Virus record (IMG/VR): IMGVR_UViG_3300042868_003730 | Span: 32,001-96,000 of that record | Source of the DNA: a virus | Reading direction: 5' to 3' (one strand) | DNA length: 64,000 nt | In this document: positions 2,865 to 30,267 of the stretch, piece after piece | Layout of the letters: each line of letters opens with the position of its first letter | Numbering within the stretch: the stretch's first letter is position 1 | Notes under the pieces: generated by a model | Databases searched by the model: none | Seen by the model: the letters and a program-made list of their open reading frames with translations, nothing else | Told to the model about the DNA's origin: nothing | Made by a program: the position numbers and the translations under genes

Positions 2865-4106
2865 ATGCTGGATTTTAGAACTTATATCACCGAGGCAACT
2901 AATGCCCACATGACTCACATTGCCGACCTACCTTTTATCGAAGGTGTGGAAGGTACGCGAAAGGCTATCGCCTATTTGCATGATCTGAGGGACTTCCTAA
3001 ATGGTAGTCCCTCTTCTCACATGGCATCAAAGAATAAGATGTCAGTTAAGTTCGACGGAGCACCTGCTGTTTTCCTAGGTATCGACCCAACTGATGGAAA
3101 ATTCTTCGTCGCAAAGAAGGGTATCTTCAATAAGAACCCAATCGTCTACAAGACTCAGGCTGAAGTCGATGCTGATCTTCAGGGCGACCTACAAGAAAAG
3201 TTCTCGATCCTATTGAAGGAACTGCCTAAGCTGGGCATCAAGTCCGGAATCTTCCAGGGCGATTTGATGTTCACGAAGTCAGATCTCAAGAAAGAAACAA
3301 TTGATGGTGAGCAATATGTTTGCTTCCACCCAAATACGATTGTTTATGCAGTACCAGTATCTTCTCCTCTTGCTGCTAAGATTCAAGCAGCCAAGATCGG
3401 TATTGCTTTCCATACTGAATACACCGGAACAGAATTCGCTAACCTATCAGCGCATTTCGGAAATAAGATTGTTCCGAAGTTCAAAGAGAGCAAAGATATC
3501 TGGGCAGTTGATGCTGCCTTTGAAGATGCTTCCTCAGTAGCTACTCTTTCTCCGGCTGAAGAAGCGAATGTAGATACTCTTCTTAGTGGAATTGATAAAG
3601 TATTCAAGAGCATCGATGGTGTAATGCTCAATGAGATCCATAAAGACAAAGAACTGCTCGATCTGGTTTTGATCTACATCAACTCCAAAGTAAAACAGAA
3701 CGTCAGATCAGAAATGGCATCTGATAAAGCACTTGGCTTCGCTAAGTTTATTGATGATCGTTATCAGAAAGAGATCGAGAAAAGAGCTAGCGCAGCGGGT
3801 AAGGCTACTCAAGAACAAAAGCGATTAAGAGTCCTTGAGTATTTCAAGAAACATGAGAACAAGGAGATCGCAAAGATCTTCTTAGTTGCTGATATGATTG
3901 ATGAGTTAAAGGGTATTCTTATTGCCAAGATGAACCAGATCGGTGGTCTCAAGCACTTCGTCAAGACCAACAGTGGTTTCAAGGTAACCTCTCCTGAGGG
4001 ATTTGTTGCTATCAATAGTGACAATGAGGCAGTAAAACTAATTGACAGATTTGAGTTTAGTCAGAACAACTTCTCTCCAGAGATCATCAAAGGCTGGACT
4101 AAATAA
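2865..4106 (+). CDS. conserved T4-like protein (DUF6267-like) with ligase-like nucleotidyltransferase motifs
   Basis: KFDG, FQGDLMF, EGFV, VKL motifs; N-terminus MLDFRTYITE. Confidence 0.65.
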   Translation: MLDFRTYITEATNAHMTHIADLPFIEGVEGTRKAIAYLHDLRDFLNGSPSSHMASKNKMSVKFDGAPAVFLGIDPTDGKFFVAKKGIFNKNPIVYKTQAEVDADLQGDLQEKFSILLKELPKLGIKSGIFQGDLMFTKSDLKKETIDGEQYVCFHPNTIVYAVPVSSPLAAKIQAAKIGIAFHTEYTGTEFANLSAHFGNKIVPKFKESKDIWAVDAAFEDASSVATLSPAEEANVDTLLSGIDKVFKSIDGVMLNEIHKDKELLDLVLIYINSKVKQNVRSEMASDKALGFAKFIDDRYQKEIEKRASAAGKATQEQKRLRVLEYFKKHENKEIAKIFLVADMIDELKGILIAKMNQIGGLKHFVKTNSGFKVTSPEGFVAINSDNEAVKLIDRFEFSQNNFSPEIIKGWTK

Positions 4107-4130
4107 TATATTCGTCGATTGTCAAACAAA

Positions 4131-5756
4131 ATGAAAAATTACAAATCACTCATTCAAGAAGTTGCTGGGTCAACCATCGTTATGGGCTTCGGAAGACTGA
4201 ATCCTATTACCAATGGTCATGCGCTTTTGTTAGATAAACTTCTTAAGATTGCTTCTGCCAACAGAGCGAAGCACGTGATGTACATCACAAAGACTCAAGA
4301 TAAGAAGAAAAACCCACTACCAATTGAGCGGAAATTATTCTGGTCGAAGAAAGCATTTCCGGAAATCAATTTCGTTGGTTGTGATGACCAAATCCGAACA
4401 GTTATTGAAGCAGCGAAAGAACAGGATGGCAAGTACAAGAACCTAATTCTTGTAGCTGGTTCTGATCGCGTTCCGTCATATGAATCTTTATTGAACAAAT
4501 ACAATGGAACTGAATATAATTTCGATTCCATCAAGGTAGTCTCCGCAGGTGAGCGCGACCCAGACGCAGATGATGCTACTGGTATGAGTGCTTCGAAGAT
4601 GAGAGCAGCTGCGACGAATAATGATTTTGTGTTGTTTAAGAAGGGCGTTCCTGATTCAATTAAGGAACCAGATGCTCGTAAAATGATGCAGGAATTGCGC
4701 ACCCATATGGGCATCAAGTCCGTAGCTGAGATGGCGATTCAAGTTACACCTTCAAGAAATGCATATTACCTCGGTGAGACTTTCCTTATTGGTCAGGTAG
4801 TAAGAGAAGGCAATGAGTATTTCGAGATCCTTGATCGTGGAAGTAATTACGTAACCGTCTCTGATATCAATGGACATATGAAACGTAAGTTCATTCAATC
4901 ACTGGTCGTCGAAGATATCCAGATGCCATACGCTTCCGCAGAGGATGAAGATACGGGATTTTCCTTTAAGGGATTCCATCCTTCTAAGTCATTCCTTAAT
5001 AATCATGATGCAGTGACATCATTCCAGGCTACAATTGGTCGCTATGAAGAAGGAAAGATTGGCGACGCAGTTGGAATTCTTCGTGCCATGCAAAATACTG
5101 ATGAGATGATTCAACACATCGAGAAGATTGTTGATCTAGGGGAACATCCTGGCGATCATACTCTGGTAAATGCAAAGGTAATGGAACATTACGCAAAGAT
5201 CAGAGACAGTCTTATTGGTATTGGTGAGTTCGAGCACCACAGAGATTACCTACAGGCACTTCTATCTTTAGTTCAACTGGCAGAAATAGAAGCACAACCA
5301 ATGGCGGAAAATATGGAAACACCAATCGTTAAACCAAGCGACAAACTAAAAGTAGCCAAGATTATCGCTGATGCTCTTGGTGTTGACTCATCTGGTAGCA
5401 ATGCCGAGACACTTGTTAATAGTGCACTTCGTGCTATGAGGAAGAAAGTTCTCAAACAAGATTCAGTTGCGATCATTGGAAATATGCTTGATCTTGCTGA
5501 CGAAGTAGGTATCAAATACGATAAGAATTTAGTTCCAACTGGTCTAAAAGAAAGTGCTGATCCAGTAAATATGGATACTGAAACAGAAATGCTTGGATTC
5601 GAACAGCTGCGTCGTCGTATTCGCAAACACGCAACCCTCGGCGCACCAGAACAAGAAGAACTTCCTGAGAAACCAGCTGGCGTCGGTTCTAGTCTTGGCT
5701 CATCTTCCGAAACTCATCGTAAACAAAAAGTACGCAAGTTGATGAGTAATGATTAA
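4131..5756 (+). CDS. HxGH-family cytidylyl/nucleotidyltransferase with C-terminal extension
   Basis: FGRLNPITNGH, VAGSDRV, SAGERDPDA, MSASKMR; ATG4131 preferred. Confidence 0.8.
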   Translation: MKNYKSLIQEVAGSTIVMGFGRLNPITNGHALLLDKLLKIASANRAKHVMYITKTQDKKKNPLPIERKLFWSKKAFPEINFVGCDDQIRTVIEAAKEQDGKYKNLILVAGSDRVPSYESLLNKYNGTEYNFDSIKVVSAGERDPDADDATGMSASKMRAAATNNDFVLFKKGVPDSIKEPDARKMMQELRTHMGIKSVAEMAIQVTPSRNAYYLGETFLIGQVVREGNEYFEILDRGSNYVTVSDINGHMKRKFIQSLVVEDIQMPYASAEDEDTGFSFKGFHPSKSFLNNHDAVTSFQATIGRYEEGKIGDAVGILRAMQNTDEMIQHIEKIVDLGEHPGDHTLVNAKVMEHYAKIRDSLIGIGEFEHHRDYLQALLSLVQLAEIEAQPMAENMETPIVKPSDKLKVAKIIADALGVDSSGSNAETLVNSALRAMRKKVLKQDSVAIIGNMLDLADEVGIKYDKNLVPTGLKESADPVNMDTETEMLGFEQLRRRIRKHATLGAPEQEELPEKPAGVGSSLGSSSETHRKQKVRKLMSND

Positions 5757-7090
5757 TGGCACAGTTTAATAAAAACACTCAGGAATTTCTCAACCAAGAG
5801 AAAACACTATTTGAAGTTCCAATGATTGCCAACAAGAATGGCGACATTGTTACCACTTCAAATCGGTTTCCAGTCGATGCGGTAATAACAGGCACACCCG
5901 TTGTATCGTTTGGTGGAGTAAATCTAGATGCTTTTGGTAGATTAAGGGTAAGCAATCCACATACACTATTTGATGGCGCACAACGTTATAGAGATGATCC
6001 ATTTAAATGGAATCAAGTAGACACTGGCGCAGCCACAAGTGTATTTCTGCCTAACGAAAGTTCAGTGTTAATGTCGGTCTCAGGCAACGGTGACGAAAGC
6101 CTGAGACAAACTAAATCAGTGTTTGCCTATCAGCCTGGCAAAAGTTTACTGACCATGGTTACCTTTGCTATGACAACACCCACTGCAGGTCTGCGTCAGC
6201 GTGTTGGATTGTTTGGAGCACAGAATGGTGTATACTTTGAAGTAGATGGCACGACTGTGAATCTTGTGATTAGAAAATACACATCAGGATCCGTAGACGA
6301 CACAACAGAAAAGTTTGCTCAGGCAAATTGGAATGGTGATAAACTTAATGGCACTGGCCCAAGTGGAATTACTTTAAATGTCGCAACAGCACAAATTTTT
6401 TGGTGTGATATTGAATGGCTAGGAGTTGGATCAGTTCGTTGTGGGTTTGTAATTGATGGACAGTTCATACTCTGTCATACATTTCATCATGCCAATAGAG
6501 TTGGGTTCAGTAAAGTTTATATGACTACTGCTTCATTGCCAGTTAGATATGAATTAACTAGTACTGGCCCTGCAGGTTCTATGAGAGCAATATGTTCTAC
6601 CGTGATGTCTGAGGGTGGATATATGAATCGTAGTATTACTCGAAGTATTGGAACTAGTTTAACGGGTAAAGATCTAAGTAATACTGTGTATAGACCTCTG
6701 GTATGTATTAGACTCAATTCTGCCAATATTGAATCTGTGGTAGTTCCTTCTAAGTTTGATATATTTGGTTTGCAGTTGGCTGCGTTTTCATATCGCATTA
6801 TAGTAAATCCCACATTAACTGGCGCTAGTTGGACTAGTTCTGGAGCAGACAGTTCAGTAGAGTATGATATTTCTGCCACAGCATTAACAGGTGGAACAGT
6901 TATTGACCAAGGAATTTTTGTAGGATCTAATAAGGGTGGTTCAGCTTCAATCACTTCTAATGATGTAGATTTTAGTCAACAAATTGGTCGTACCATAGCA
7001 GGGGTTAGTGATATTTGGTGTCTAGCTGCTATAGCGACTACAAATAATGATGATGCTGTTGGTGTAGTGACTTGGCAAGAGCATATATAA
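5756..7090 (+). CDS. putative virion structural protein (beta-rich)
   Basis: DAFGRLRVS, YQPGKS, DIEWLGVGSVRCGF motifs typical of a phage virion family. Confidence 0.6.
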   Translation: MAQFNKNTQEFLNQEKTLFEVPMIANKNGDIVTTSNRFPVDAVITGTPVVSFGGVNLDAFGRLRVSNPHTLFDGAQRYRDDPFKWNQVDTGAATSVFLPNESSVLMSVSGNGDESLRQTKSVFAYQPGKSLLTMVTFAMTTPTAGLRQRVGLFGAQNGVYFEVDGTTVNLVIRKYTSGSVDDTTEKFAQANWNGDKLNGTGPSGITLNVATAQIFWCDIEWLGVGSVRCGFVIDGQFILCHTFHHANRVGFSKVYMTTASLPVRYELTSTGPAGSMRAICSTVMSEGGYMNRSITRSIGTSLTGKDLSNTVYRPLVCIRLNSANIESVVVPSKFDIFGLQLAAFSYRIIVNPTLTGASWTSSGADSSVEYDISATALTGGTVIDQGIFVGSNKGGSASITSNDVDFSQQIGRTIAGVSDIWCLAAIATTNNDDAVGVVTWQEHI

Positions 7091-7108
7091 ATAACAATAA
7101 GGATTATA

Positions 7109-7546
7109 ATGAATGATCTAACCATCTCAATGAAGAAGTTGCTTGCCAATGTATTCTTCTATTACTACAAAGCACATGCATTTCATTGGAACGTAGAGAG
7201 TGTTCTGTTCTCGCAGATCCATGACTTCTTTGGGGATATCTATGCTGATGCTCATACTTCAGTAGATGATATTGCTGAACGAATTCGTATTATGGATGAA
7301 TATGCGCCAACCAATCTGGCTGAATTGTATCAACTGAAGACCATCCAGGAAAGTAATCTTAGTGGTAGCGATGTCGTGAATATGCTTTCAGAACTGGAAA
7401 AGGATAATGAGAGTATCCAGGAAAACTTAACAGAAGTGTTCGGAATGGCAAATTCACTAAATATGCAGGGGCTAGCAAATTACCTCGCTGGTAGATTAGA
7501 GATCCACTCCAAATTCGGTTGGATGATTAAGAGTCATTTGAAATGA
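7109..7546 (+). CDS. dps: Dps/ferritin-like protein
   Basis: HAFHWNV, H..F...Y, DDIAERI ferroxidase motifs; TATAAATA at 7086. Confidence 0.9.
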   Translation: MNDLTISMKKLLANVFFYYYKAHAFHWNVESVLFSQIHDFFGDIYADAHTSVDDIAERIRIMDEYAPTNLAELYQLKTIQESNLSGSDVVNMLSELEKDNESIQENLTEVFGMANSLNMQGLANYLAGRLEIHSKFGWMIKSHLK

Positions 7547-7893
7547 GCAATTTAAATAGTTATTTCGTTTCTGCTGAACTTGATCTGTATATTGATCAGG
7601 GAGACGCGTATGATAATGTCGTGACTCTCAATGATGAGTCAGGAAGTCCAATTGATCTAACTGGATTGACCGTAACTGCTTCTCTGAAGAGATATTATAA
7701 CTCAACAAGGGATTACGCTCTAACTGCTGCATCCATTGGAAGTGGAACCAATGGTCAGATTTTATTATCTATGACTGCAGAGACTACTGCATTACTAGTT
7801 GACCCAAGATACGTTTATACTGTCTATGTAACAACCAACAATAAGAAAGTCAAAGTTTTATATGGGCAGGTATTAACATCGCCGATGGCGTAA
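7543..7893 (+). CDS. small virion/baseplate-associated protein
   Basis: LYIDQGDAY...PIDLTGLT...RYVY pattern. Confidence 0.55.
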   Translation: MSNLNSYFVSAELDLYIDQGDAYDNVVTLNDESGSPIDLTGLTVTASLKRYYNSTRDYALTAASIGSGTNGQILLSMTAETTALLVDPRYVYTVYVTTNNKKVKVLYGQVLTSPMA

Positions 7894-7963
7894 CAATCAC
7901 TATGTTTTCTTATCTAAATAAGAAATAAGAAAACGATCTCTTACTAATTTTATAGGAAATAAT

Positions 7964-8536
7964 ATGAACATAGCAAAATCACAAGACGTGCTTGGAGCAT
8001 CAGTTACTCGTGGAAGCAGCCAGTCTGAACAAATGGAAGTTAGCGGTCGTTATCGCGCGGAATGCCTTGACGCACAGGGTAATGTCAAGTGGGTCGAGGA
8101 TTTCGACAACTTGGTTACCACCCAAGGCAGAAACCACTTGTTAGACCATGGTCTAGCTGGTCCAGCTACTGCTGTTATTGTTCGCATGTCGTTCATTACT
8201 TCTGGTACTCCAGTTGTTGGTGACACATACGCGACCCACGCTGGTTTCACTGAACTTGGTTCGGGTATTATTGCTGCTCGCGGCACACCATCCTTCTCTG
8301 CCGCATCTGCTGGTGCTAAGGCAACTTCGGCAGCAGTTTCTGCTTCTATTGTTGGTACTGGTTCTGTTACTGGTGTGGCAATTAACCTAGTTGTTGGTGT
8401 TGTTGGTAACTTGGGTGTCGTTGCTGATACAGCAACCTCTGGTGGTATCCTGTACAGTGCTGGTCTGTTCGCTGTGGCCAAGTCTGTTTCGTCAGGCGAC
8501 ACTCTCAACGTAACTTACACGACTACATTGACCTAA
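7964..8536 (+). CDS. virion/tail-associated protein
   Basis: NLVTTQGRNHLLD...GDTLNVTY; late promoter upstream. Confidence 0.55.
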   Translation: MNIAKSQDVLGASVTRGSSQSEQMEVSGRYRAECLDAQGNVKWVEDFDNLVTTQGRNHLLDHGLAGPATAVIVRMSFITSGTPVVGDTYATHAGFTELGSGIIAARGTPSFSAASAGAKATSAAVSASIVGTGSVTGVAINLVVGVVGNLGVVADTATSGGILYSAGLFAVAKSVSSGDTLNVTYTTTLT

Positions 8537-8567
8537 TTTTCGTTCTTAACGATACTGGTGTTATTGT

Positions 8568-8855
8568 ATGTGTGATGTTGCGGCATTAACACCAGTATTA
8601 AGTTTCAATTATTTGAGTTCAAGAACACAGGTGTATAAAGGCGATCCTGGTCAGGGATTACCTATACACCAACATGAGTTTGCTCACCTTACAGTATGCA
8701 TCCAAGGTAGCATAAAGGTATTGAAGCAAAAGGGGTCGAAAATTTTAACTGTAAATGATAATCCTCTATTACTTACAGCTAATGAGTGGCACGAAATAGA
8801 AATTGTAGAACCAAATACAATATTCTCAAACATTTTCGAGGCGATAAATGGCTAA
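8568..8855 (+). CDS. cupin-domain protein
   Basis: HQHEFAHLT...G...WHEIE cupin metal motif. Confidence 0.75.
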   Translation: MCDVAALTPVLSFNYLSSRTQVYKGDPGQGLPIHQHEFAHLTVCIQGSIKVLKQKGSKILTVNDNPLLLTANEWHEIEIVEPNTIFSNIFEAING

Positions 8856-11537: not shown

Positions 11538-11552
11538 ACTCTAAATAACACT

Positions 11553-12236
11553 ATGAACGAAAACTTTTTACGTAAAGTACAGGCAGCTACTATTGTTGCC
11601 AAAACTCTTGGGTATGAACCACAGGAGGGGGAAAGTCCAGCTGATATTATTAAGACAGCACTGGCTCTCCAACCAGATTTGACTGAAGAGCAGAAAAAGA
11701 CTCTTCGCGATATGTTAAAGTTGTCAGAATCTATGGGTATTGATGTGGAAGATAAAGACTACTCCGATGACGAACTAGACAAAATGGCTGATGGCGTGAA
11801 AGACTGGGATCATATTATTGATGCCTATGACGATGAAGAACTGGCTATTGTTGATGATGAAACAGGCGAGGAAGTTGATAACCTGAAAGAATCATTTGAG
11901 ATCAATGAGGTATTGTCCAGAGCTGAGCGTATCAGAGCAAAGGCAAGATTCGCAAGAACTGCAACCAAAAGAGAAATCAAAACCAAACTCGCACTTCGTC
12001 GTCAATCTAATTCAGCTACATTCAGCAAAAGAGCCAGACATTTGGCCATGAATATGATGAAAGTTAAACTGGCCAAGAAACCTCTTGCCAATATGACTGT
12101 GCTTGATAAAGAAAGAGTTGAGAGGATTCTTTCTAAGAGGAAAGTTCTTATCAATCGCCTGGCAATGAAACTAATGCCTCGTGTCAAGAAGATCGAGAAA
12201 GATCGTTTACATCACAGAACATTCACACAAAAATGA
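11553..12236 (+). CDS. hypothetical head-associated protein (acidic middle, very basic C-terminus)
   Basis: Late promoter 5 nt upstream; ESFEINE junction then Arg/Lys-rich region. Confidence 0.55.
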   Translation: MNENFLRKVQAATIVAKTLGYEPQEGESPADIIKTALALQPDLTEEQKKTLRDMLKLSESMGIDVEDKDYSDDELDKMADGVKDWDHIIDAYDDEELAIVDDETGEEVDNLKESFEINEVLSRAERIRAKARFARTATKREIKTKLALRRQSNSATFSKRARHLAMNMMKVKLAKKPLANMTVLDKERVERILSKRKVLINRLAMKLMPRVKKIEKDRLHHRTFTQK

Positions 12237-12892
12237 TTAGACTAAAAGAATTCATTTCCGAAGCAGAGCGCGGCACAAAGAATGCACGTGAGATTGCTGA
12301 TACACTGAAGAAAGCTGGGTACAAGAAACTCGGTGAAGGTGTGGATGCTACTGTCTGGACTAAGGATGATGGTTCAGTGCTGAAGATTATTATGCCTAGT
12401 ACACCTGACTCACAGGCTGCGCTAACATTTATGAATTTTTGGAAGTTCTGTCAGAACCATAAACAACTTCGGTGCTTGCCAAGATTCAAAGAAATCCAGG
12501 GTGAGAATCTAGCGAAGTTTACTCTTAGAAAAAAAGAGTATCTCCAGATCTCAATGGAGAAATTACAACCTCTGGCCAAAGGTAGTGCTGAAGAAATCCT
12601 AGTCTGGCACCTTAGTGATTATGCCACACAGAATACTGACTGGAACACCGTATTCACAGATCTTCATAAAATAGAGAGTTATGAAGATCTCAAACCAAAA
12701 GAACAAAAGAGATATTTGTCTTTCTTGGAAGATAAGAGTAAAGTCTTAGAGTATAAGATGTTGTATACTGTTATGAAACTTCTTTACGTAACAGGATCGC
12801 TAAATAATATGAATTGGGACCTGCATACTGAAAACGCAATGCAGCGAGCAGATGGTACTGTAGTTATCGTCGATCCTTGGCTAACCTTCTAA
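12233..12892 (+). CDS. protein kinase-like fold protein
   Basis: LGEGVDATVW (Gly loop), VLKI, MEKL, DLHTEN, IVDP. Confidence 0.75.
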   Translation: MIRLKEFISEAERGTKNAREIADTLKKAGYKKLGEGVDATVWTKDDGSVLKIIMPSTPDSQAALTFMNFWKFCQNHKQLRCLPRFKEIQGENLAKFTLRKKEYLQISMEKLQPLAKGSAEEILVWHLSDYATQNTDWNTVFTDLHKIESYEDLKPKEQKRYLSFLEDKSKVLEYKMLYTVMKLLYVTGSLNNMNWDLHTENAMQRADGTVVIVDPWLTF

Positions 12893-12902: not shown

Positions 12903-15761
12903 ATGAAAACATTCAAAGAACTGTTCGAAAAGAAACTAACTCCAGCTGAGTTAAAGAAGCGCGAAGAAATTGCTAAGGCAATGGAGCGTGAGAATCCAGG
13001 TATGGATATGGGCAAGAAGATGGCCATTGCTACTGCAGCTGCTAAGCGCGTAGCAGAAGAAACTGAAGTTGAAGAAGCATATATGTCCAGCGACCGCAGC
13101 AAGCAAATGTTTAAGCGTAATGAGTTGGACCACGAACTTAGGCATGAAGTAGAACCAAAGCGTTCTGAGCCTGCAGAACCACACGCTGTTCACATCAATG
13201 GTAAGAAGTGGAAAACATTTCCAACCAAGTCACACGCTACTAACGTCGCCAAGAAGATTGCTGGTGCTACTGTTGTAAAAGAATCAATTGATGAGGGCAA
13301 GATTCCGGAAATGAGATATTCGGAAGTGATGAAGAAGATTAAATCTGGAACACACGAAGCAACTCACGATGTCAAGCCAGGCAAGCATGTCGAACTTCGT
13401 CACATTGACTCAGGTAAAAAGACAACAGTTTATGTAAAAGAATCTTCGGAATTGGATGAAGCAACAGATCACCACGCTGACGCGATGGAACACAAGAAAC
13501 AATCTGACGCAGCAATGGATAAGAATGATATGGAAGCATATCATCACCATATGTCGGCTCATCATGAATCAATGGGTCAATGGCACGAGTCAAAGGGTCG
13601 CAGTTCTAATGCTGACAAAGAATACGAAAAAGCAGAAAAGCATCACGAACTAAGCCTGAAGAAATCAAATCAGAAAAACGAAGGAACCGAAATGTTATCA
13701 TTCAAGTATTTCCAGCAAGCACTGGTTGAAGCCAAGAAGAAATGCAAAGAATCTTCAGGTGAGATGGAAATTGCTCATGGTGAATTGCTAAACAAAGATG
13801 AAGATAATGGTAAAGAACTCGACGAAGAAGATGATTATGATAAAATGTTGAAAGACTTGATGAAGAAAGATGGCAAAAGACTTATGCAGAAATACTCTAC
13901 CGATGTTAAGAAGTCTAAAGACCTTGACAGCGGCAAAGAGCTCAAAAAACATATCAAGCAAAATCCAGATGTTGTAAAAACTTATTCAACAGCTGTCAAA
14001 AAAGACAAAAAGATGTATGAAGAAGTAGAGATTGATGAGCAAGCACCTGTTGCTCCAGTTCCTGGAATGAAAGATGGAAAGTACGCTATCATGGTTCATC
14101 CAGAATCAAAGCAGCGCGTGACGATCGAAAGAAAGAACAAGAAGAACTATCCAGCATCTGAAGGCTGGAAAGAAGTTGCTCCTGGTATCAAAGAATCAGT
14201 TGAACTTGATGAAGCAGAATTATTTTATCAGCATGCTAAGAAACTTATGGATCAAGGAAGAGATTCGCATAAGCCAAGTTCTGATGCGCCTTATGGTCGT
14301 ACTTTTCATGGTAATGCATACCACAATCCACCAGGAAAATCAAGATTACATGTGTTGGATAATGGTAAAAAAGTAAAGACAGTCCATGTTCCAGACGAAC
14401 ATATTGAAAAACTGGATACCAAGGGAAAACTTGAATGGCCAAATCATATGGACCCTACAATTGAGAAAAAGCATTTTGATGCATATGCGAAAACCAATTC
14501 CAAGCACATTAGTGAACCAGTTAAAGAATCAGTTGAAGAACTCGATGAAGCAGCAATTACGCACGTTGTCGCAAAGGACAAACTTGCTGCGCACAAAGAG
14601 TTTATGGACAAAGAAGGGTTTAAGGTAACAACAAAACCTCTACCAAAGAGCCACCCAAAACACGCCACCCATATGGGTATTGTTTCTAAGAATAGTCAGG
14701 AGTCTTCATATCACGAAGATGGAAATGCTCATTCTGTCAGCGAATCAGTTGAATTCGATGAATCCTACGACGAATTGAATATGCGTCACAAGTTTGTGTT
14801 TAATAAAACAGCTGCCGGAAAAGCACGTGAAGTGGCTCGTAATCGTGAAGAACTAAAGAGCCAAATGAAGAGACAAAGAGAAATGGGCGGCATTACTGGT
14901 CCTAAAGGTAAATTGCCAGAAGAAGTTGAACTAGACGAGATCTCTACTGCTACAATGAGTCATCAAGGTAAGACTACTCTGAAACATGTCAAGAATCCAG
15001 GTGTTCAACTGCGTATGGCTGCTCATGACATTAAGCCAGGTATCAAGGGATATCGCGATCGCGTTGCCCTTATGCACGCAGCTGATGCTGAAAAGAAGCT
15101 AAAGGAAGAAGTTGAACTGGATGAAGTTTCTCCATTCGACTGGAAAGCCTACGCAAAAGAAAAGGGAACTGCTTCTTCTAACAAGACAAAGACGTTTCAC
15201 GACGTAAAGAAAACTAGCACTGGTACTGTATACACCAAGCAAGTTAATCCAGACGGTACGAGCAAGGGTTCGGGCGATGATGCTGCTAAAACAGCTGAGA
15301 AAGCCGATGCTCCTAAGCGTGGTCGCGGTCGTCCTGCTGGTGTTGGTGCAAAGACTGGTTCTTACAAGCCACGTGATCCAGCGGCTAAGGCTGCGTCTGC
15401 TGCCAAAGCAGCTGCTAGCAAGGCAGCTAACCGCGCAATGCGCAAAGAAGAATTCGATAATGAGTTTATGGGAAGTTTGATTGAAGGTTTCGAGGATGAA
15501 GACTTTGACGAATTCCTATATTGCGAAGAATTTGACGAGTTGGATGAGGCAACGCAAGAAGCCCTGATCAATTTCATTAATGAAAAGAGCTGTGGTTCAT
15601 ACAAAATGAAAGAGTCTCTTACTGGTAAGCAACATAAACTAGATAAGAACAAGAATGGTAAGATCGACAGCCACGATTTCAAACTTCTTCGTAAAGAAGA
15701 AACTGAACAAGTCCAAGAAAGCGTAAATACATATGCTGCTTTCTTAACCAAGAAACAATAA
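12903..15761 (+). CDS. large charged modular protein, probable head-internal/core protein
   Basis: MKTFKELFE N-terminus, repeated E(S/E)VELDE linkers, AT-hook KRGRGRP, EF-hand-like DKNKNGKIDSHD. Confidence 0.65.
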   Translation: MKTFKELFEKKLTPAELKKREEIAKAMERENPGMDMGKKMAIATAAAKRVAEETEVEEAYMSSDRSKQMFKRNELDHELRHEVEPKRSEPAEPHAVHINGKKWKTFPTKSHATNVAKKIAGATVVKESIDEGKIPEMRYSEVMKKIKSGTHEATHDVKPGKHVELRHIDSGKKTTVYVKESSELDEATDHHADAMEHKKQSDAAMDKNDMEAYHHHMSAHHESMGQWHESKGRSSNADKEYEKAEKHHELSLKKSNQKNEGTEMLSFKYFQQALVEAKKKCKESSGEMEIAHGELLNKDEDNGKELDEEDDYDKMLKDLMKKDGKRLMQKYSTDVKKSKDLDSGKELKKHIKQNPDVVKTYSTAVKKDKKMYEEVEIDEQAPVAPVPGMKDGKYAIMVHPESKQRVTIERKNKKNYPASEGWKEVAPGIKESVELDEAELFYQHAKKLMDQGRDSHKPSSDAPYGRTFHGNAYHNPPGKSRLHVLDNGKKVKTVHVPDEHIEKLDTKGKLEWPNHMDPTIEKKHFDAYAKTNSKHISEPVKESVEELDEAAITHVVAKDKLAAHKEFMDKEGFKVTTKPLPKSHPKHATHMGIVSKNSQESSYHEDGNAHSVSESVEFDESYDELNMRHKFVFNKTAAGKAREVARNREELKSQMKRQREMGGITGPKGKLPEEVELDEISTATMSHQGKTTLKHVKNPGVQLRMAAHDIKPGIKGYRDRVALMHAADAEKKLKEEVELDEVSPFDWKAYAKEKGTASSNKTKTFHDVKKTSTGTVYTKQVNPDGTSKGSGDDAAKTAEKADAPKRGRGRPAGVGAKTGSYKPRDPAAKAASAAKAAASKAANRAMRKEEFDNEFMGSLIEGFEDEDFDEFLYCEEFDELDEATQEALINFINEKSCGSYKMKESLTGKQHKLDKNKNGKIDSHDFKLLRKEETEQVQESVNTYAAFLTKKQ

Positions 15762-15771: not shown

Positions 15772-17085
15772 ATGTCACTATGGGGAAATAAAGATACGGC
15801 AGCTGTAACTGGGTTGGTTGGTATCGTTGGAGCAACATACGGAACCACTACTACTGGTACTTCGGTAGCAGCAGCAGCTACTTATAACGTAACACAAAAA
15901 TCAGCTACTGGTGGTGGCACTGGTGGAACATTCACTATCGTTAAGACTGGTTCTGGTACATCATATAGTGGAGCCACTACTATCACTGGCGTTCTTCCAG
16001 TTAATGGTGGATACACTGCAAGCACTGTCGTTACCATTAGCGGTGCGCAACTTGGTGGCGCCGATGGTACGAATGATATGACATTTACTGTCAACACTCT
16101 ACCTACATCAGCTCTAACTGGCGCTGCTGGTACTTTTACTAATGCTGGTACTGCTGTTGCAGTAACACAAACATTCACTGGTTTAACACAAAAATCTGGT
16201 GGCACTACAACTGGAACTGGCGCAGTCTTTTCTGTCGCTCGTACAGGTGGTACAGCATATTCTTCTAATACAGTCGTTACAGTAACGACTCCAGGAACTG
16301 GATATGTTGCTGGTGATACAGTTAAGATTGATGGCGCATTACTTGGTGGCGTGACAGTAACAAATGATTTAACTGTTACAATTACTGCTGCTCCTACTGC
16401 ATTTACGCTTGAATTAAAAGAAGGCAGTTTCGTTGTTATTGCTGGCGTTAAGTATAAGATTCTTAAAATCAACAGCAATATTTCAGCTACTCTGACTAGT
16501 CTTTATGAGGCTGCTACAGTAACTGGTGGAACGATCACTGAGCATCTGGCACCAACTTTCCTTAGTCTAGCTGATGCTCGTAAGGCAGTATTCGTTTCGC
16601 AAGAAGAAGCTCTTCTGGCAACAAATAAAGCCAAGGGAATTAATGGTGCTGGTTGGTGGTTATTCAATGAGTACACTGATGCTGCTGGCAAAATTCGTTA
16701 CAAAACATCATGCCTTGTCGCTATGACTGTTCTTAATGCAGTTTCTGGTGACTCCGCTGCTACTGGTGAAGATCTGATCGCTTCGGATGCTGAGTCTGTT
16801 GTTACTATTGGCACTCAACCTGCTGCGCAGAATACTTCTAGTGGTGCAGCGACCTTCGGCGTTACTGCGTCGGCTACCTCTGGTACTCTGACCTATCAGT
16901 GGCAACGTGCTCTGGCAGCAACACCAACTCGTTTCACCAATATCTCTGGAGCAACTTCGGCTACTCGCGTACTATCTGGTCAGACCTCAGGCAACACCGG
17001 AGATCTATATCGCGTAGTTATTAGTACAGATGCTGGTGCAGCCAAGGTTACTTCTAATGCAGCTGCGTTGACATTCGTGTCTTAA
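15772..17085 (+). CDS. virion surface/fibre protein with C-terminal Ig-like domain
   Basis: MSLWGNKD start, Thr/Gly repeats, TQP...TYQWQ...YRVVI Ig motif. Confidence 0.7.
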   Translation: MSLWGNKDTAAVTGLVGIVGATYGTTTTGTSVAAAATYNVTQKSATGGGTGGTFTIVKTGSGTSYSGATTITGVLPVNGGYTASTVVTISGAQLGGADGTNDMTFTVNTLPTSALTGAAGTFTNAGTAVAVTQTFTGLTQKSGGTTTGTGAVFSVARTGGTAYSSNTVVTVTTPGTGYVAGDTVKIDGALLGGVTVTNDLTVTITAAPTAFTLELKEGSFVVIAGVKYKILKINSNISATLTSLYEAATVTGGTITEHLAPTFLSLADARKAVFVSQEEALLATNKAKGINGAGWWLFNEYTDAAGKIRYKTSCLVAMTVLNAVSGDSAATGEDLIASDAESVVTIGTQPAAQNTSSGAATFGVTASATSGTLTYQWQRALAATPTRFTNISGATSATRVLSGQTSGNTGDLYRVVISTDAGAAKVTSNAAALTFVS

Positions 17086-24171: not shown

Positions 24172-25524
24172 ATGGTAAGAAAAATTGTAGCAAATGAAGT
24201 TTATGACTCCAAGCATCTGCTGGGGACTTTCCTTGATGAATCTAATTACGATATTCTAATTGAGGAAGATTGTGATGTTTATGCACCTGCTGGATGCGAT
24301 CTAGCAACAACAGTTGATTGTAAGCCGCAATCTGATTGCGCAGAATGCCCTAAAGGTATTTCCGAAGATAGGGTTGCTTTCAAATTCCGAAAGAACTACT
24401 TCAGCAAGGAACAGCAACAAGCAGCCTATGAAGGTCTGCGTGCTGCAGCAACTCCGACTAATAATCGTGGTACAGCAGCGGGTACTGTTCGCGTCGGTAA
24501 GGCAGGTAATCGTGAGTGGGTCACGGAATACCAGGAAGCAGTAATCAAATACTTTGCTAAACCTTATACCACTATTACTGGTGAAGATCCGCTCGAAGAA
24601 CTATTTGCTAGGAAAGAGCAGATGGCTGAACCTGGTACCATAAACACAGTATGGAGAACAGGTGCTCCGATTGTGTTTGAAGAGTGGGTCGAAGCAACCA
24701 GAAAACTACCAGCAGAAAAACAAAAGTTAGCAGCGAAAAATATCCTTGAGGATAACATCTCAGCTACTACCTACGCCAATGAAGTGCTTAGTGGAATTGC
24801 TGGTGCTTTCGGAAGAACTCCCCGAGTTCCATTCGGTCGTCTTGCTGCATACAATGAGCGCAATCCAGATATGTTTGAAAGAGGTGTGCCATTCCTGCAG
24901 ACACTTGATCGGGCATTTTCTGAACTTATGCCAGAACGCCACGGAGCGCAAAAGAACTTTGTTGATTCATTGGATGAACATTTCCGAATCGCAGATACGG
25001 TGTTCACCACACTGACTATCAATAAGACGTTCCGTACTGCTGCTCACCTTGACGCAGGTGATTATGGCCCAGGATTCTCTAATCTTCTTGTTCTTTCAAA
25101 CGATGGTGATTTCACTGGTGGTTACTTGATTCTTCCTGAGTTTAGGATTGCAGTTAATGTTCGACCTGGCGATCTGTTGCTGATTGCAAACCATACTGCG
25201 ATTCACGGAAACACTCCGATCGTTCTTGGCTCAGAAGCCAGTGAGCGTATCTCCATTGTTGCTTACGCTCGTGAAGATCTTAAGTCACTTGGTACTTGGG
25301 ACTATGAACAGACTCGAAAGAGATACGTTGACAGTTGCAGGGATAATAAAGACCACCCGCACTGGTGGGATCGTTTCACTGGGGTATGGGCAGGAATGTG
25401 GCAATCCAAAGAATGGTATGATTATTTGGTAGCTGCATTGGGTGAAGATGAGGCTCGTGCTAATGACCCAGCTATTTTTGAGATCCACAATAATGGATCA
25501 GTTGGTCTTGAGTCCTTCTTCTGA
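24172..25524 (+). CDS. TET/JBP-family 2OG-Fe(II) dioxygenase
   Basis: FTTLTIN..FRTAAHLDAGD (HxD), GGYL, HGNTPI (H), RISIVAYARE (2OG Arg). Confidence 0.85.
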   Translation: MVRKIVANEVYDSKHLLGTFLDESNYDILIEEDCDVYAPAGCDLATTVDCKPQSDCAECPKGISEDRVAFKFRKNYFSKEQQQAAYEGLRAAATPTNNRGTAAGTVRVGKAGNREWVTEYQEAVIKYFAKPYTTITGEDPLEELFARKEQMAEPGTINTVWRTGAPIVFEEWVEATRKLPAEKQKLAAKNILEDNISATTYANEVLSGIAGAFGRTPRVPFGRLAAYNERNPDMFERGVPFLQTLDRAFSELMPERHGAQKNFVDSLDEHFRIADTVFTTLTINKTFRTAAHLDAGDYGPGFSNLLVLSNDGDFTGGYLILPEFRIAVNVRPGDLLLIANHTAIHGNTPIVLGSEASERISIVAYAREDLKSLGTWDYEQTRKRYVDSCRDNKDHPHWWDRFTGVWAGMWQSKEWYDYLVAALGEDEARANDPAIFEIHNNGSVGLESFF

Positions 25525-26204
25525 TGTGTGCAGTTATTGGCGCAACAATTAAGAATCCAAGTAGCGCAGATTTTCAAACACTGAAAAGAGTATTCCACGA
25601 ATCCCGCATTCGTGGAATGCACGCTACTGGATTATCATACGTCAAGAACAATAAAATCCACACAAACAAACTTCCAGTATCTGCTGATAAGTTTCCCTTT
25701 GATTGGGATGATTATGTCAATGAAGATGGCAATCTTTATTTGGTGGGTCACTGTCGTTACTCAACTTCAGACCTGCAATATAATCAACCCATTAACAATG
25801 ATACTATATCAGTAGTTCATAATGGTGTGGTGACACAAGAGTCACCAGAGAGCTGGAAAGATAATTATGGTTATGACTGCGTAACAAAGAATGATACTGA
25901 GTTGATCCTTAAATCATTAGAGGCAGATGAATCTCCTCTTGAGCACTGGTCAGAATCATCTCTGGCTGTTTGTGAACTATGGAATGATAAGAAGATTCGG
26001 TTCTACCGAAATGGAAAGCGACCAATTTATTTTACTTCAGTCGATCGCGGAACTATAATTACTTCTACGCGAGATATTGCTATTCGCTCTGGTTTAACTA
26101 ATACCACTGAACTTCCGTATAATACATACGCCACAATTAAGAGTGATGGACTAATTATGGAACAAGTAAGTGTAAACAATAAAGACTTACAGCATACACT
26201 ATGA
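25524..26204 (+). CDS. class II glutamine amidotransferase (Ntn hydrolase)
   Basis: N-terminal MC, RG.HATG, GHCRYST, NQP, HNG, NDTE. Confidence 0.88.
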   Translation: MCAVIGATIKNPSSADFQTLKRVFHESRIRGMHATGLSYVKNNKIHTNKLPVSADKFPFDWDDYVNEDGNLYLVGHCRYSTSDLQYNQPINNDTISVVHNGVVTQESPESWKDNYGYDCVTKNDTELILKSLEADESPLEHWSESSLAVCELWNDKKIRFYRNGKRPIYFTSVDRGTIITSTRDIAIRSGLTNTTELPYNTYATIKSDGLIMEQVSVNNKDLQHTL

Positions 26205-27079
26205 CAAAATACAATCCCAGTAACTTTACGTATGGTATGGAAATAGAGTGGGGTGATGTTCCTCGCTCTTTTGCGATTCCGGATAACCTTGGGTCGTGGG
26301 AATATTCTGAACGGGATATTATAAACCTAAGAGAACCATATCAATATGTCTGCGCTGATCCTCTTGGTGAGACACCACCAGTAGGAGGTGAGATCAACAC
26401 AAAGCCAACTAAAACTTGGCAAGAGCAGGTTGCTCGATACTTTGAGTTGAAAGAATTGTTTGAGTCAAATGGATCTTCTCCTACAGTTGGTGTAACTGCT
26501 CATACGCACATTCACTGTCGTGTTCCTGGGTTGAAGGATGATATCAATGCTCTAAAGTCTTTGACGAAATATATCAAAGAAAATCAGGCAGCAGCTATTG
26601 ATCGAATCTATGGGTTCTACGAACATAATCAGATGAAGGGTGCTAAGGGTGCCAAGATGTATTTGAAGTTCGATGGTGGTCGCCCAATGCCAGATTATAT
26701 GAGCGATAACATTATCAGCAAGGCAACTGACTTCGATTCATTCATCAAGATGCACGCTGCTGGTAAAGATGGTGTATCAATGGGTAGGCCATTTAGATTT
26801 GCCATCAATATGTATGCATTGAAGCATATTGACACAGTAGAGTTTAGGTTGTTCCGTGGTACATTTGACAGAAACCAACTTGAGTCTTGTTTCCGTTTTG
26901 TTCAAGACTTTCTTGATGCTGCGTTGAACGATGGTCCAACTGTTGATGAGTTGTTCTCAAACAATAATTACAATTTCCCTCCAATGATGTGGGATCTAAA
27001 TCAATTCATTGGTTGGGAGAAAACTAAACACCCAGAAGATCGTGGTAAGAAAGTAAGGACATTCGTTGAAGTTATCTAA
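26201..27079 (+). CDS. amidoligase (COOH-NH2 ligase, Amidoligase_2-like)
   Basis: YGMEIE, GEINT, HTHIH, INM, TVEFRLFRGT. Confidence 0.8.
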   Translation: MTKYNPSNFTYGMEIEWGDVPRSFAIPDNLGSWEYSERDIINLREPYQYVCADPLGETPPVGGEINTKPTKTWQEQVARYFELKELFESNGSSPTVGVTAHTHIHCRVPGLKDDINALKSLTKYIKENQAAAIDRIYGFYEHNQMKGAKGAKMYLKFDGGRPMPDYMSDNIISKATDFDSFIKMHAAGKDGVSMGRPFRFAINMYALKHIDTVEFRLFRGTFDRNQLESCFRFVQDFLDAALNDGPTVDELFSNNNYNFPPMMWDLNQFIGWEKTKHPEDRGKKVRTFVEVI

Positions 27080-27623
27080 ATGCACACGAGATAAATTTAT
27101 CTCAAGTATTAGCACAGCGAAAGAAGATAATTTTGCTCGCACATTTGTCGCTAAGGCAGATATGCAAGAACAGTGGGATTATTGTCTCGGGTTGTTTGAT
27201 AATACAGGAGATCTTATGGCAGCAATCATTACCACAATCTCCAAAAGGAAACCATTCGTAGCCAACCTTCAATTGTTGCATACATTCGCTAAGCATAGAG
27301 GGCAGGGTGCAGCTAGGTTGCTTTGTGAGCAATCTTTACTGAATGTAAAGAATCACGGAGCTGAGTATTTCCGAGTTTCTTCTGAGATCAATGCTGTTGC
27401 ATTCTATGAGAAGATAGGTTTCAAGTTTTGGGGAAAACAAAAGAGTGGTTGCCAACTTTCGATATTCCGAATTGATGGCGGCACATTCGCTGAGGGTGAT
27501 TATGATTATTATGATTCAATGATCCATAACGCAATCCATAAAAAAGGTAAGGGTGGGTGCGTTGAACTATTTGATATTGCAAAGAATAAAGACAATGGTC
27601 TTCAAGAGTTATTCTCAGCATGA
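27066..27623 (+). CDS. GNAT acetyltransferase
   Basis: HTFAKHRGQGAARLL (motif A), AVAFYEKIGF (motif B). Confidence 0.85.
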   Translation: MKLSKCTRDKFISSISTAKEDNFARTFVAKADMQEQWDYCLGLFDNTGDLMAAIITTISKRKPFVANLQLLHTFAKHRGQGAARLLCEQSLLNVKNHGAEYFRVSSEINAVAFYEKIGFKFWGKQKSGCQLSIFRIDGGTFAEGDYDYYDSMIHNAIHKKGKGGCVELFDIAKNKDNGLQELFSA

Positions 27624-28633
27624 ATCATAAAGAACTTCCAAGAGAATCATTTATTCGTTGGTATGCCTGGTCATTAAAATATAATGATTGTGACCCAGCT
27701 GTGTGGGCAACAAATTATCTAAACAAAAGATTCGAGCATAACTCTGAACAGAAACTGTGGCTCGCGTGGTTATACGGAAACACCTATCATCTGCCTACTG
27801 CTTGGGTTCTAATGAATGAGTTTCCTGATTTTGAATTAGCAACAGTTGACCGAACTACTCAATGGAATACTGCTAACTATAAAAGATTACGTTATCAGAC
27901 AGATACAAAATGGAACAAAGGACATCTACCAGTGATGTTCAAATCCTATCAAGAATTTATAGGTGAAGGAAGTCAACATGACCGTATTGAATCATACTAT
28001 GCTGGAAATGCGAAAGAAAATTTTGATTCTTTGTGGAATGTACTTAAAGGAAACCTTCATAAGTTTGGTCGTTATTCTACTTGGTTTTATATGCAGCATC
28101 TCAAACATACTGCTAGTGTTAATGTCGAGCCTACTTCTCTCATGTTGGATGATTATGATGGTTCCCGTTCTCATCGTAATGGGTTACTTATGGCCATCGG
28201 CAGGAATAACGATTATGATAGGAAACTTAGTACAGCGGAGTATCGAGACCTTGAGTCTATTAGCATTGGAATTATCGATGAGATGAGGGATAGGTTTCCG
28301 GAGTTAAAAGATCAGATTGATTTCTTTACAATGGAAACCTGTCTGTGCTCATTTAAGAAAATCTTCAGAGAACACCATGGTCGTTATCTTGGTTACTACT
28401 TAGATCGGCAGGCTGAAGAGATTATGCAATGCGAGAAAGATGGCTGGCATGGTATTGACTGGGAAGTTCTTTGGCAAGCAAGGAATGAAACAATTGATTC
28501 GCGATTGAACAATAAGAGAGGTATTATCAAAGAAAAGTTTACTTCTTTTGTTAGAGAAGGTAAGATTGATAATCTCGAGTGGATGTTCGATGATGAAGAA
28601 TGTAGTAATGTTAGTTTGGAGAAATTCTTATGA
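27620..28633 (+). CDS. amino acid:DNA transferase (aGPT-PPlase2-like)
   Basis: DCDP, WLYGNTY, FGRYSTWFY (HhH-like), ETCLCSFKK, RYLGYYLDRQ. Confidence 0.8.
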   Translation: MNHKELPRESFIRWYAWSLKYNDCDPAVWATNYLNKRFEHNSEQKLWLAWLYGNTYHLPTAWVLMNEFPDFELATVDRTTQWNTANYKRLRYQTDTKWNKGHLPVMFKSYQEFIGEGSQHDRIESYYAGNAKENFDSLWNVLKGNLHKFGRYSTWFYMQHLKHTASVNVEPTSLMLDDYDGSRSHRNGLLMAIGRNNDYDRKLSTAEYRDLESISIGIIDEMRDRFPELKDQIDFFTMETCLCSFKKIFREHHGRYLGYYLDRQAEEIMQCEKDGWHGIDWEVLWQARNETIDSRLNNKRGIIKEKFTSFVREGKIDNLEWMFDDEECSNVSLEKFL

Positions 28634-29175
28634 GAAAAATCGTAGCAGTTGGTGGTCAACCAGGAACAGGTAAAACTACTCTATTCCGTAAATTTATGGA
28701 AGATAAAACCTGGGAGAAGGTTGAGCCAAAGAAAATGCTTCCTGCTCTTTACTGCAAGGAACTTGATCTTTATGTTCTGGGTAAGTATGAAGAGGGTGAG
28801 ACGTTTGCTGGTACTGACCGATTAAGTATGGCTGTGCAGCCAATCGCTCAGTGTTTTGTTACTGAGACTAAATCGAATGTCTTGTTTGAAGGTGATCGAA
28901 TCTTTAATCAGTCCTTTCTGGAATTCGCTATGGCTCTTCCGGAAGTTGATCTTCAGGTTATCTATCTTAAGGTTTCGCCAGAAACCCTGACTCAACGATA
29001 CGCCGATAGAGGATCAGATCAGTCAGAGACTTTCCTAAAGGGAAGAGCCACTAAATATAATAACATACTTTCAAATTTTGAATTGATGCCCTATATTAAT
29101 GAGTTCGTGAACACTACATTAGAAGATCAATTGAAAGTTATCAAATTTATGGAAAATCATTTAATAGGTAAATAA
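28630..29175 (+). CDS. P-loop kinase, probable 5-hydroxymethyl-pyrimidine DNA kinase
   Basis: GGQPGTGKTT, GTDRLSM, LFEGDR; adjacent to the aGPT-PPlase2 gene. Confidence 0.8.
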   Translation: MRKIVAVGGQPGTGKTTLFRKFMEDKTWEKVEPKKMLPALYCKELDLYVLGKYEEGETFAGTDRLSMAVQPIAQCFVTETKSNVLFEGDRIFNQSFLEFAMALPEVDLQVIYLKVSPETLTQRYADRGSDQSETFLKGRATKYNNILSNFELMPYINEFVNTTLEDQLKVIKFMENHLIGK

Positions 29176-30267
29176 ATGCTTTCGCTAAAACAATATATAT
29201 CCGAGACAGAAAATAAAATGGCAGCATCTATCAAAAAGAAATTACTGACTCCGTCAAAGTTTGGCTTAAACACAATGAAGCCCATGACTTCGAGTCAAAT
29301 AGTGACTGTTGCCAGAAAGAGATTAATGTCGTTGGATATATCAGATGATGCTAAAAAATTATGTAATTATATAATTGATCAATCCATTGCTGGTAAAGAT
29401 AGTTTCCCTGCAAAATTTAGTGGTGTTTCTAATGAAGATCTTGGTGTTATAACTTCTGACTTCGGTGAGGTTGCTGGCGCCATTTACATGCTAAACTCCA
29501 AAATGGGTTACACTCATGCTAGATTTCCAATTGGAGAGAATGAGCGTCTCGTAGATTACTATCTTGTTAGGGATGGTATTGATGAGAAGATTTCTGCTAA
29601 AGCAGGTCAGGGTGGTGCACCTGCTCTTACTGCTGTAGAGAAAGCATTAGGAGATATTGACACCAAAATACTAAACGATACACAAAAGAAAGCATTAAGT
29701 GTCTTGGACTTTATCAATAAGGGTACTGTTTACGGTGGTGTTCTTGAAGCAGCTAAATTTCTTAAGATGCCTGGGTATAAGGCATTGATATCGATCTTGT
29801 CCAGAAAAGATTTGAAGACTGGTTATAATGCACCAAACATCCCTGACCAACAAGATCTTATCAGAGCTGTTGACGCATGCGGAACTTTTGACTCTTGCAT
29901 GAGTGAGTTCAAGCCTCTGTTCACTGCTGCCAATTTTGTATTAGGTGGTGAGGGTAAGATGAGATCTGTTTTTGATGGAAGCGCAGGATCTAGATATAAG
30001 AAATGGGGCATCCTACACTTTCCAGTTACTAGTGAAGTTATGGGGTGGTTAAATGATCCCGACAATGAAGCAAGAAATTTGTTGACCATGGCTGCTAGAA
30101 CTCTGACAGTTAGTCAGGTTTATTTTGACTATAAATCGAACAATTTTTCATATACAACGAAAACCTTTTCTGACGCTGACTTCAAATTCCATTCTCCGTC
30201 AAGTACACCAAACCCAGTGGGAAACAGAATTGGCATGAAAATGATCAAATCGCCGAAGAAAGAATAA
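29176..30267 (+). CDS. hypothetical protein, possible PD-(D/E)XK-like fold
   Basis: MLSLKQYISE N-terminus; DFGE...LVDY...ISAK. Confidence 0.5.
   Translation: MLSLKQYISETENKMAASIKKKLLTPSKFGLNTMKPMTSSQIVTVARKRLMSLDISDDAKKLCNYIIDQSIAGKDSFPAKFSGVSNEDLGVITSDFGEVAGAIYMLNSKMGYTHARFPIGENERLVDYYLVRDGIDEKISAKAGQGGAPALTAVEKALGDIDTKILNDTQKKALSVLDFINKGTVYGGVLEAAKFLKMPGYKALISILSRKDLKTGYNAPNIPDQQDLIRAVDACGTFDSCMSEFKPLFTAANFVLGGEGKMRSVFDGSAGSRYKKWGILHFPVTSEVMGWLNDPDNEARNLLTMAARTLTVSQVYFDYKSNNFSYTTKTFSDADFKFHSPSSTPNPVGNRIGMKMIKSPKKE

Follow-up and report, generated by a model that had tools for sequence, protein, structure and literature searches.

In phage T4, the internal proteins and Alt travel into the host together with the DNA (PMC9026906). 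The capsid targeting sequence (CTS) at the N-termini of the internal proteins IPI, IPII, and IPIII is removed by the prohead protease gp21 (Mullaney and Black 1996, cited in PMC9026906); according to the same review, residues 4 and 7 of the CTS govern targeting and residues 8 and 10 govern processing, and the CTS is raised as possibly a general device of T4-like phages. In the T4 record, IPII and IPIII start with MKTYQEFIAE, IPI with MKTFKEF, and Alt with MELITELFDE. For cyanophages, a literature search that left most subscription papers outside its reach found only this T4 review and no cyanophage leader, and a NAR 2026 paper cites the CTS for T4 IPI only. Here, we describe five genes with CTS-like leaders between positions 2865 and 30267 of a 64,000-nucleotide window, the whole stretch of DNA that was analyzed, which spans positions 32001-96000 of a terminally repeated IMG/VR virus record of 147,921 bp (IMGVR_UViG_3300042868_003730) from an uncultured phage known from metagenomic DNA. 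We consider it likely that this phage uses a T4-type CTS, M-[KLI]-x-[FYL]-[KR]-x-[FYL]-[ILF]-x-E, to load proteins into its head, and our confidence is higher than this overall level for the proteins encoded at 2865, 4131, 12233, and 12903.

The five leaders, all on the plus strand, are MLDFRTYITE at 2865 (an open reading frame (ORF) of 413 amino acids (aa)), MKNYKSLIQE at 4131 (541 aa; the ORF caller prolongs this frame to a TTG at 4119), MIRLKEFISE at 12233 (219 aa), MKTFKELFE at 12903 (952 aa; a 9-residue form), and MLSLKQYISE at 29176 (363 aa). An earlier note, made from the sequence alone, had listed these N-termini, and each reads as it was quoted there. All five leaders have F, Y, or L at position 4, and the four of 10 residues have Y, L, or F at position 7; in the 12903 leader, which lacks one residue, positions 7, 8, and 9 are L, F, and Glu. 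All leaders end in a hydrophobic-x-Glu sequence motif (ITE, IQE, ISE, LFE, and ISE, respectively). The likeness to the T4 internal-protein leader claimed in the earlier note holds position by position, with hydrophobic residues at 4, 7, and 8 and Glu at 10, and the positions conserved in the window leaders are the four key positions of the T4 CTS. Repetition of a single DNA stretch does not account for the leaders, whose mean pairwise identity is 46% at the nucleotide level and 37% at the amino acid level.

A genome-wide motif scan, the check suggested in the earlier note, was run with a strict regular expression derived from the five leaders, M[KLIM]x[FYL][KRQ]x[FYL][ILFV]xE or its 9-mer form. 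It matched 6 of 197 ORF N-termini, namely the reported five and MKSFKSYLTE at genome position 122799, against 0.0265 per proteome (about 0.03) expected from the N-terminal composition and a maximum of 1 over 2000 simulations. The same expression matched 1 of 922 internal Met positions and, over all six frames, 8 of 5339 Met positions. The earlier note had looked to replication genes as the place where an equally frequent motif would tell against a packaging role; zero matches fall on replication or nucleotide-metabolism genes. The expression is also specific in the reference phage T4, because over positions 1-150,000 of the 168,903 in that record it returns just ipII, ipIII, the start of gene 61.1, and an unannotated 10-codon ORF at 29376. 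The T4 protein gp61.1 (54 aa, hypothetical; T4 record 18966-19130) starts with MKTFKEFIKE, a full CTS-like leader.

The leader set exceeds the five of the window. The sixth tagged protein, 168 aa long and encoded after the capsid gene outside the window (genome 122799-123305), is Acb1-like (Pfam Acb1, 52.1 bits vs a 27-bit cut-off). In T4, the Acb1 gene (57B) adjoins ipI (T4 record 73591-74410); here, the Acb1-like protein is itself leader-tagged. The lone internal match, MMSFKSFLE, lies at residue 87 of a 593-aa ORF neighboring the Acb1-like gene and may be the true start of that ORF. A 509-aa P-loop protein, also encoded after the capsid gene and outside the window (genome 119474-121003), contains at residues 136-146 an internal LDFRTDLTEAT, a near copy of the N-terminus of the 2865 protein (MLDFRTYITEAT).

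The leader can be compared with virion content in the cyanophage S-CREM2 (OR473000), for which 52 of 221 ORFs are reported as detected in CsCl-purified virions (PMC10665884). A scan of annotated starts, covering the S-CREM2 record outside positions 114001-117999, identified six coding sequences that begin with the leader. Five of the six appear in the published virion list, compared with a background of 52/219 (hypergeometric P = 0.003): gp6, a SAM hydrolase (MKDFDSFLEE, 19 peptides), gp13 (MKDLHSFLTE, 1 peptide), gp14, a kinase (VKRFDAFLTE, 21 peptides), gp136 (MQTFSMFFSE, 8 peptides), and gp154, a cytidylyltransferase (MKNFSSFLTE, 3 peptides). The sixth, gp175 (55 aa, MNWLKNYLIE), is absent from the list. 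The gp154 protein aligns with the 4131 protein of the window from residue 1 (38% identity, E 3e-31). Kinases and cytidyltransferases are described as recurrent in cyanophage virion proteomes (PMC10665884, citing S-CRM01 and others). At 7704-10546 of the S-CREM2 record, the leader-bearing gp13 (78 aa) overlaps by 4 nucleotides (nt) the start of gp12, an 869-aa virion protein annotated as Cas9-like that has LRFASFMAE at residues 17-25.

Analysis of 80 IMG/VR loci around relatives of DUF6267, the family of the 2865 protein, revealed the leader on 114 of 1434 plus-strand ORFs of at least 50 aa. With the first 10 residues removed, the mature parts and seven reference proteins formed 28 BLAST clusters, reference-only clusters included; the leader is portable among unrelated proteins. 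The DUF6267 homologs carry it at the aligned start in 66 of the 80 loci; of the remaining 14, the majority either are shifted by one residue or have a GTG start. A logo of 43 distinct DUF6267 leaders has F/L at position 4, Y/F at 7, L/I at 8, and E at 10. The leader was also found in C48C1, in Syn9 gp184, and in the related locus L090. The kinase-like family of the 12233 protein is habitually tagged: 14 of 112 homologs have the 10-mer leader and 56 of 112 its relaxed form, vs 9 of 197 ORFs in this genome for the relaxed form. Distant homologs in this family (P0219-P0312) show a shorter leader class, MR(A/S)xEF(I/T)xE, counted in the relaxed form as the MRAxEFIxE type, that another phage group may use as its counterpart of this tag.

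The genome encodes a gp21-family protease (Peptidase S77, PF03420; E 7.7e-44, 145.9 bits vs a 27-bit cut-off; phrog_207, E 6e-67), whose gene is placed in the canonical head module and whose product starts with MKFLRE. The major capsid protein contains KWAPILE/HAD, with the site at residue 17, and similar sites abound in the scaffold protein.

The claim that most of the five genes lie behind late-promoter motifs stands in part. The T4 late promoter TATAAATA was rejected as the relevant motif, since it occurs 9 times on the plus strand and 0 times on the minus strand and precedes none of the five. Another motif, CTAAATAA, occurs 13 times in the window vs 3.7 expected (0 of 100 shuffles reach 13) and genome-wide 19 times on the plus strand and 3 times on the minus strand. 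Genes for the sheath, tube, scaffold, and baseplate follow it at distances of 3-95 nt, and this placement before structural genes suggests that it is a late promoter. Plus-strand copies precede three of the five leader genes: at 2828..2835, 29 nt ahead of the ATG at 2865; at 4099..4106, 24 nt ahead of the ATG at 4131; and at 12800..12807, 95 nt ahead of the ATG at 12903. A further copy (11541..11548, plus strand) precedes the operon of the fourth: the gene behind this copy, 11553-12236, shares 4 nt with the beginning of the 12233 gene. The fifth gene, at 29176, lacks an exact CTAAATAA and has a variant matching at 7 of 8 positions, CTAAATAT, 117 nt upstream. Sigma-70-like sites are not enriched between positions 2000 and 19000 (29 vs 38 expected).

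The first tagged gene (2865..4106, plus strand) encodes a 413-aa DUF6267 protein (PF19782, E 6e-93) with a predicted RNA-ligase-like nucleotidyltransferase body. Its leader occupies nucleotides 2865-2894, and the Pfam match starts at residue 13, which places the leader outside the domain. Residues K62-x-D64-G65, E378-G379-x-V381, and K391 are invariant in 33 sequences; K62, D64, and G65 form the motif I lysine, KxDG, of the ATP-dependent RNA/DNA ligase superfamily, and the other two elements probably represent ligase motifs IV and V. The AF2 model (pLDDT 86.6) has residues 1-15 below 50, as for a disordered leader. In the wide VIA comparison, all of the top 15 rows were ligases, led by RNA ligases at Z 8.0-6.2: the best was 5cot (Z 8.0, 182 aligned residues, rmsd 3.8), and T4 Rnl2, Trl1, and T4 Rnl1 scored Z 7.2, 7.0, and 6.2, respectively. 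Foldseek with the same model gave no match at E <= 0.001, and neither single-sequence PDB searches with all five proteins nor a DUF6267 profile search of PDB returned anything usable. The invariant KxDG and the modeled fold thus agree with the description of this protein in the earlier note as ligase-like.

The second gene (4131..5756, plus strand) encodes a 541-aa protein, the N-terminal half of which resembles HxGH nucleotidyltransferases (phrog_3041 'cytidyltransferase', E 1e-64). The signature PITNGH is located at residues 25-30, and the match to PF01467 reaches 18.6 bits, below the 21-bit cut-off; the HxGH signature and the phrog_3041 match point to the nucleotidyltransferase that had been predicted. 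By clustering, the C-terminal extension is related to the 593-aa post-capsid protein. The DUF6267 protein and the 4131 transferase are probably one protein in some phages, because both match consecutive parts of a single family, phrog_455. The third gene (12233..12892, plus strand) encodes a 219-aa candidate kinase similar to T7 gp0.7 (phrog_15752, E 4.5e-12), and this profile match is in line with the kinase assignment of the earlier note. A Pfam profile search with this protein gave no match; in the ESM Atlas clusters closest to it, 10-11% of the members bear PF27024 (score 0.98), and precomputed PF27024 assignments are present on 3 of 112 homologs. The leader is retained in close homologs.

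The fourth gene (12903..15761, plus strand) had been counted among the enzymes, and this assignment fails: by any test, the product is no enzyme and looks like a 952-aa modular 'beads on a string' polyprotein. It contains eight linkers of the E-[SE]-V-E-L-D-E type, ending at residues 186, 379, 437, 549, 620, 679, 741, and 882, and an internal leader-like MLSFKYFQQALVE. The tripeptide [LI]xE is enriched (17 vs 8.4 expected, z 3.35). Library searches gave 1702 matches, with corresponding modules in shuffled positions. Among the eight relatives printed, six have the same kind of leader and all eight have such linkers. At residues ~800-850 (window 15300-15460), an AT-hook-like KRGRGRPAG (RGRGRP) is followed by an EF-hand-like DKNKNGKIDSHDF loop; the former recurs in 6 and the latter in 3 of the 8 printed relatives. 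The presence of the AT-hook-like motif suggests that some of the modules, once released, would bind DNA.

The fifth gene (29176..30267, plus strand) encodes a 363-aa protein in which the leader MLSLKQYISETENK stands before a body that, in relatives, starts at Met15. The earlier note had called it a possible nuclease. The AF2 model (pLDDT 91.5) gave weak VIA matches, the best at Z 5.3, and many rows were restriction enzymes; the best Foldseek hit was HinP1I at a probability of 0.30, with no match at E <= 0.001. The fold is at most weakly PD-(D/E)xK nuclease-like. Residues D95, E98, D127, and S140-A141-K142 are invariant, and it is our guess that they are catalytic.

For this protein, capsid loading is about evenly balanced. 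Two features weigh against it: the gene lacks an exact late motif and stands at the end of a DNA-modification operon, and the start of its relatives at Met15 makes translation from the leader ATG uncertain. Five IMG/VR relatives begin with M(M)TIKKKLL, which corresponds to residue 15 of the window protein, and the leader is present in 2 of 55 homologs and missing from 53. An explanation specific to this gene, to which we give perhaps a quarter of the weight, is that Met15 is the true start, that the leader-like codons upstream are untranslated or a relic, and that the protein is not cargo. It draws on the 53 of 55 homologs beginning at the Met15 position, on the missing exact CTAAATAA, and on the place of the gene as the last of the DNA-modification operon. 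Opposed to this are the low odds of a strict leader arising by accident (~0.03 per proteome), its in-frame presence in two relatives, P0001 (98% identity) and P0002 (85%), and the leader ATG itself, which directly abuts the upstream stop codon and has AGGT nine bases ahead. If the leader is translated, it may, less surely, have been added recently, in the window lineage, to a pre-existing 363-aa gene. In locus L090, an untagged 363-aa homolog adjoins leader-tagged genes.

The operon upstream (window 24172-29175) is a DNA hypermodification cluster encoding a Tet/JBP oxygenase (PF12851), a glutamine amidotransferase, an unknown 292-aa protein, a GNAT protein, an amino acid:DNA transferase (ADDT; PF18724), and P-loop nucleotide kinase 3 (PF18751). 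In locus L090, this ADDT-plus-kinase pair also stands ahead of the untagged homolog.

We propose the following pathway for the tagged proteins: (i) the leader would dock a newly made protein on the prohead scaffolding core, (ii) the gp21-type prohead protease would cut after Glu, with the [ILF]-x-E ending as its predicted site, (iii) the mature protein would remain inside the filled head, and (iv) it would exit with the DNA at infection. The cargo would include the RNA-ligase-like DUF6267 protein, the HxGH nucleotidyltransferase, the T7-0.7-like kinase, the 952-aa polyprotein, and, less surely, the nuclease-like protein. The polyprotein would be cut by the protease at its eight repeated linkers to yield small modules, some of them probably DNA-binding. 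We infer loading, cleavage, retention, and injection in this phage, together with every enzymatic activity and the action of the cargo before transcription.

Several observations weigh against this proposal. The bodies of the cargo enzymes are not depleted of [LI]xE (z -0.84 to +0.47 vs a background mean of +0.50); therefore, motif avoidance lends it no support. The record is metagenomic, and no virion of this phage exists. In S-CREM2, one leader gene, gp175, is outside the proteome, the enrichment test is based on 6 genes, and the authors caution that abundant proteins might co-purify with virions (PMC10665884). The S-CREM2 supplement contains no peptide lists, and cleavage at residue 10/11 is unseen anywhere in the group.

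Among the general alternatives, the one that survives best is that the leader does bring proteins into the prohead core, but that they serve in assembly only, or are degraded and expelled like the T4 scaffold, so that nothing functional is injected. The 952-aa protein indeed looks built for chopping up, T4 gp22, gp67, and gp68 are cut in this way (PMC9026906), and injection is only deduced in the present analysis. On the other hand, the enzyme-like folds predicted behind the leader keep their conserved catalytic motifs intact, the 19 and 21 unique peptides listed for the SAM hydrolase and the kinase of S-CREM2 point to retention in mature particles, and in T4, the DNA is accompanied into the host by the internal proteins and Alt (PMC9026906). 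We regard an assembly-only role as unlikely.

We give still less credit, and consider it quite improbable, that the common N-terminus reflects translation initiation or mRNA properties of late genes with high expression, or directs the proteins elsewhere, for example to the membrane or tail, with the capsid irrelevant. The leader codons are A/T-rich and the tagged genes are mostly late genes, as such a feature would have it; however, the residue class is conserved and the DNA is not (46% nucleotide identity), and the major late structural genes for sheath, tube, portal, and capsid lack the leader. The invariant Glu after a hydrophobic-x pair resembles a protease site and not an initiation feature, and the enrichment in S-CREM2 virions points to the particle. 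That five N-termini are alike by chance, the motif being short and nothing else, can be dismissed in view of the 6 matches observed vs 0.03 expected and the recurrence of the motif across 80 related loci.

We advance a wider reading tentatively, as its probability falls somewhat short of even: the leader would be a portable capsid-shipping label that makes any gene an injected effector, and the tagged genes would form a takeover and counter-defense kit acting before the first phage transcript. Two members of such a kit, the RNA-ligase-like enzyme and the NMNAT/PPAT-like transferase, would serve RNA repair or cofactor supply; the others would be a protein kinase, an anti-CBASS enzyme of the Acb1 type, and a nuclease that would cut while the phage's own hypermodified DNA is resistant. 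The gain of the leader by the nuclease-like gene would be recruitment caught in the act. A leader scan could then read the injected effector set of any T4-like phage straight from sequence. The proposed head loading, for its part, makes the injected proteins of uncultured marine and freshwater T4-like phages predictable and offers a mechanism for the unexplained recurrence of kinases and cytidylyltransferases in purified cyanophage particles. If confirmed, enzymes arriving with the DNA would change models of the first minutes of infection and of the escape from host defenses for these abundant phages, and non-coli T4-like phages could be loaded with foreign proteins by means of the ready-made leader.

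The gene content of the window is that of a T4-like myovirus (gp32, gp59, gp33, and baseplate gp5, gp6, gp25, gp53, and gp48), and the same genome encodes, outside the window, the portal, gp21 protease, gp22 scaffold, gp23 capsid, sheath, tube, and gp55. The closest named relative is Phage C48C1 (Kyanoviridae), by 43% identity in one protein only; a megablast search of positions 2000-17200 against named phages gave no match. Two plus-strand neighbors share the late cluster of the tagged genes: a 444-aa protein of a 'virion structural protein' family that has no leader (5756..7090; phrog_1645, E 6e-125) and, at the end of the cluster, a 437-aa protein of a 'head protein' family (15772..17085; phrog_613, E 2.7e-40). 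A ferritin/Dps-like gene without a leader (window 7109-7546) lies inside the cargo cluster, with a T4-type TATAAATA 16 nt upstream, and is retained at the equivalent place in locus L090. The tagged genes are immediately preceded (window 1741-2822) by genes for a cell-wall hydrolase (PF07486) and for a protease of the ClpP type (PF00574, phrog_94 'head maturation protease'), even though the genome also encodes the gp21 protease. The ClpP-like protease (2235-2822) was rejected as a component of the system and is considered a lineage-specific neighbor; the hydrolase and ClpP-like pair is present in only 1 of the 80 related loci. The ribonucleotide reductase genes are separated from the DNA-modification cluster by a gene for a SegE-like GIY-YIG homing endonuclease (window 23691-24110).

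Comparison with the known head-cargo systems revealed both common and distinct features. SPN3US and the phiKZ-type giant phages are described as having, likewise, many head-internal proteins cut at several sites by a prohead protease; they differ in belonging to a separate phage lineage, and the cleavage motif of their prohead proteases differs as well. T4 Alt is, as the proposed cargo would be, a head-borne enzyme that gp21 trims and that acts at once on the host, and its N-terminus has the same hydrophobic-x-E ending at residue 10 (MELITELFDE); however, Alt is an ADP-ribosyltransferase, another enzyme class than the window cargo, and additionally loses a C-terminal propeptide. The cyanomyovirus S-CREM2 shares protein families with the window phage and has the leader on gp6, gp13, gp14, gp136, and gp154. 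The S-CREM2 paper, in the sections consulted, gives virion presence without naming a leader or a loading mechanism (PMC10665884), and virions were studied there, whereas the window phage is uncultured and known from its genes alone. With the T4 internal proteins, the window proteins share a 9-10-residue N-terminal leader with hydrophobic residues at 4, 7, and 8 and Glu at 10, set on unrelated proteins in a genome encoding a gp21-family protease; the first six residues of MKTFKELFE are common with T4 IPI and gp61.1. The mature parts are unrelated, with no Pfam match to any internal-protein family, and the T4 internal proteins are small and basic, whereas most of the window cargo appears enzyme-like, at 219-541 aa, as judged from sequence. 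The mechanism proposed here is that already known from T4, and what is new is the cargo set, the link to the virion-proteome puzzle of cyanophages, the polyprotein, and the leader gain.

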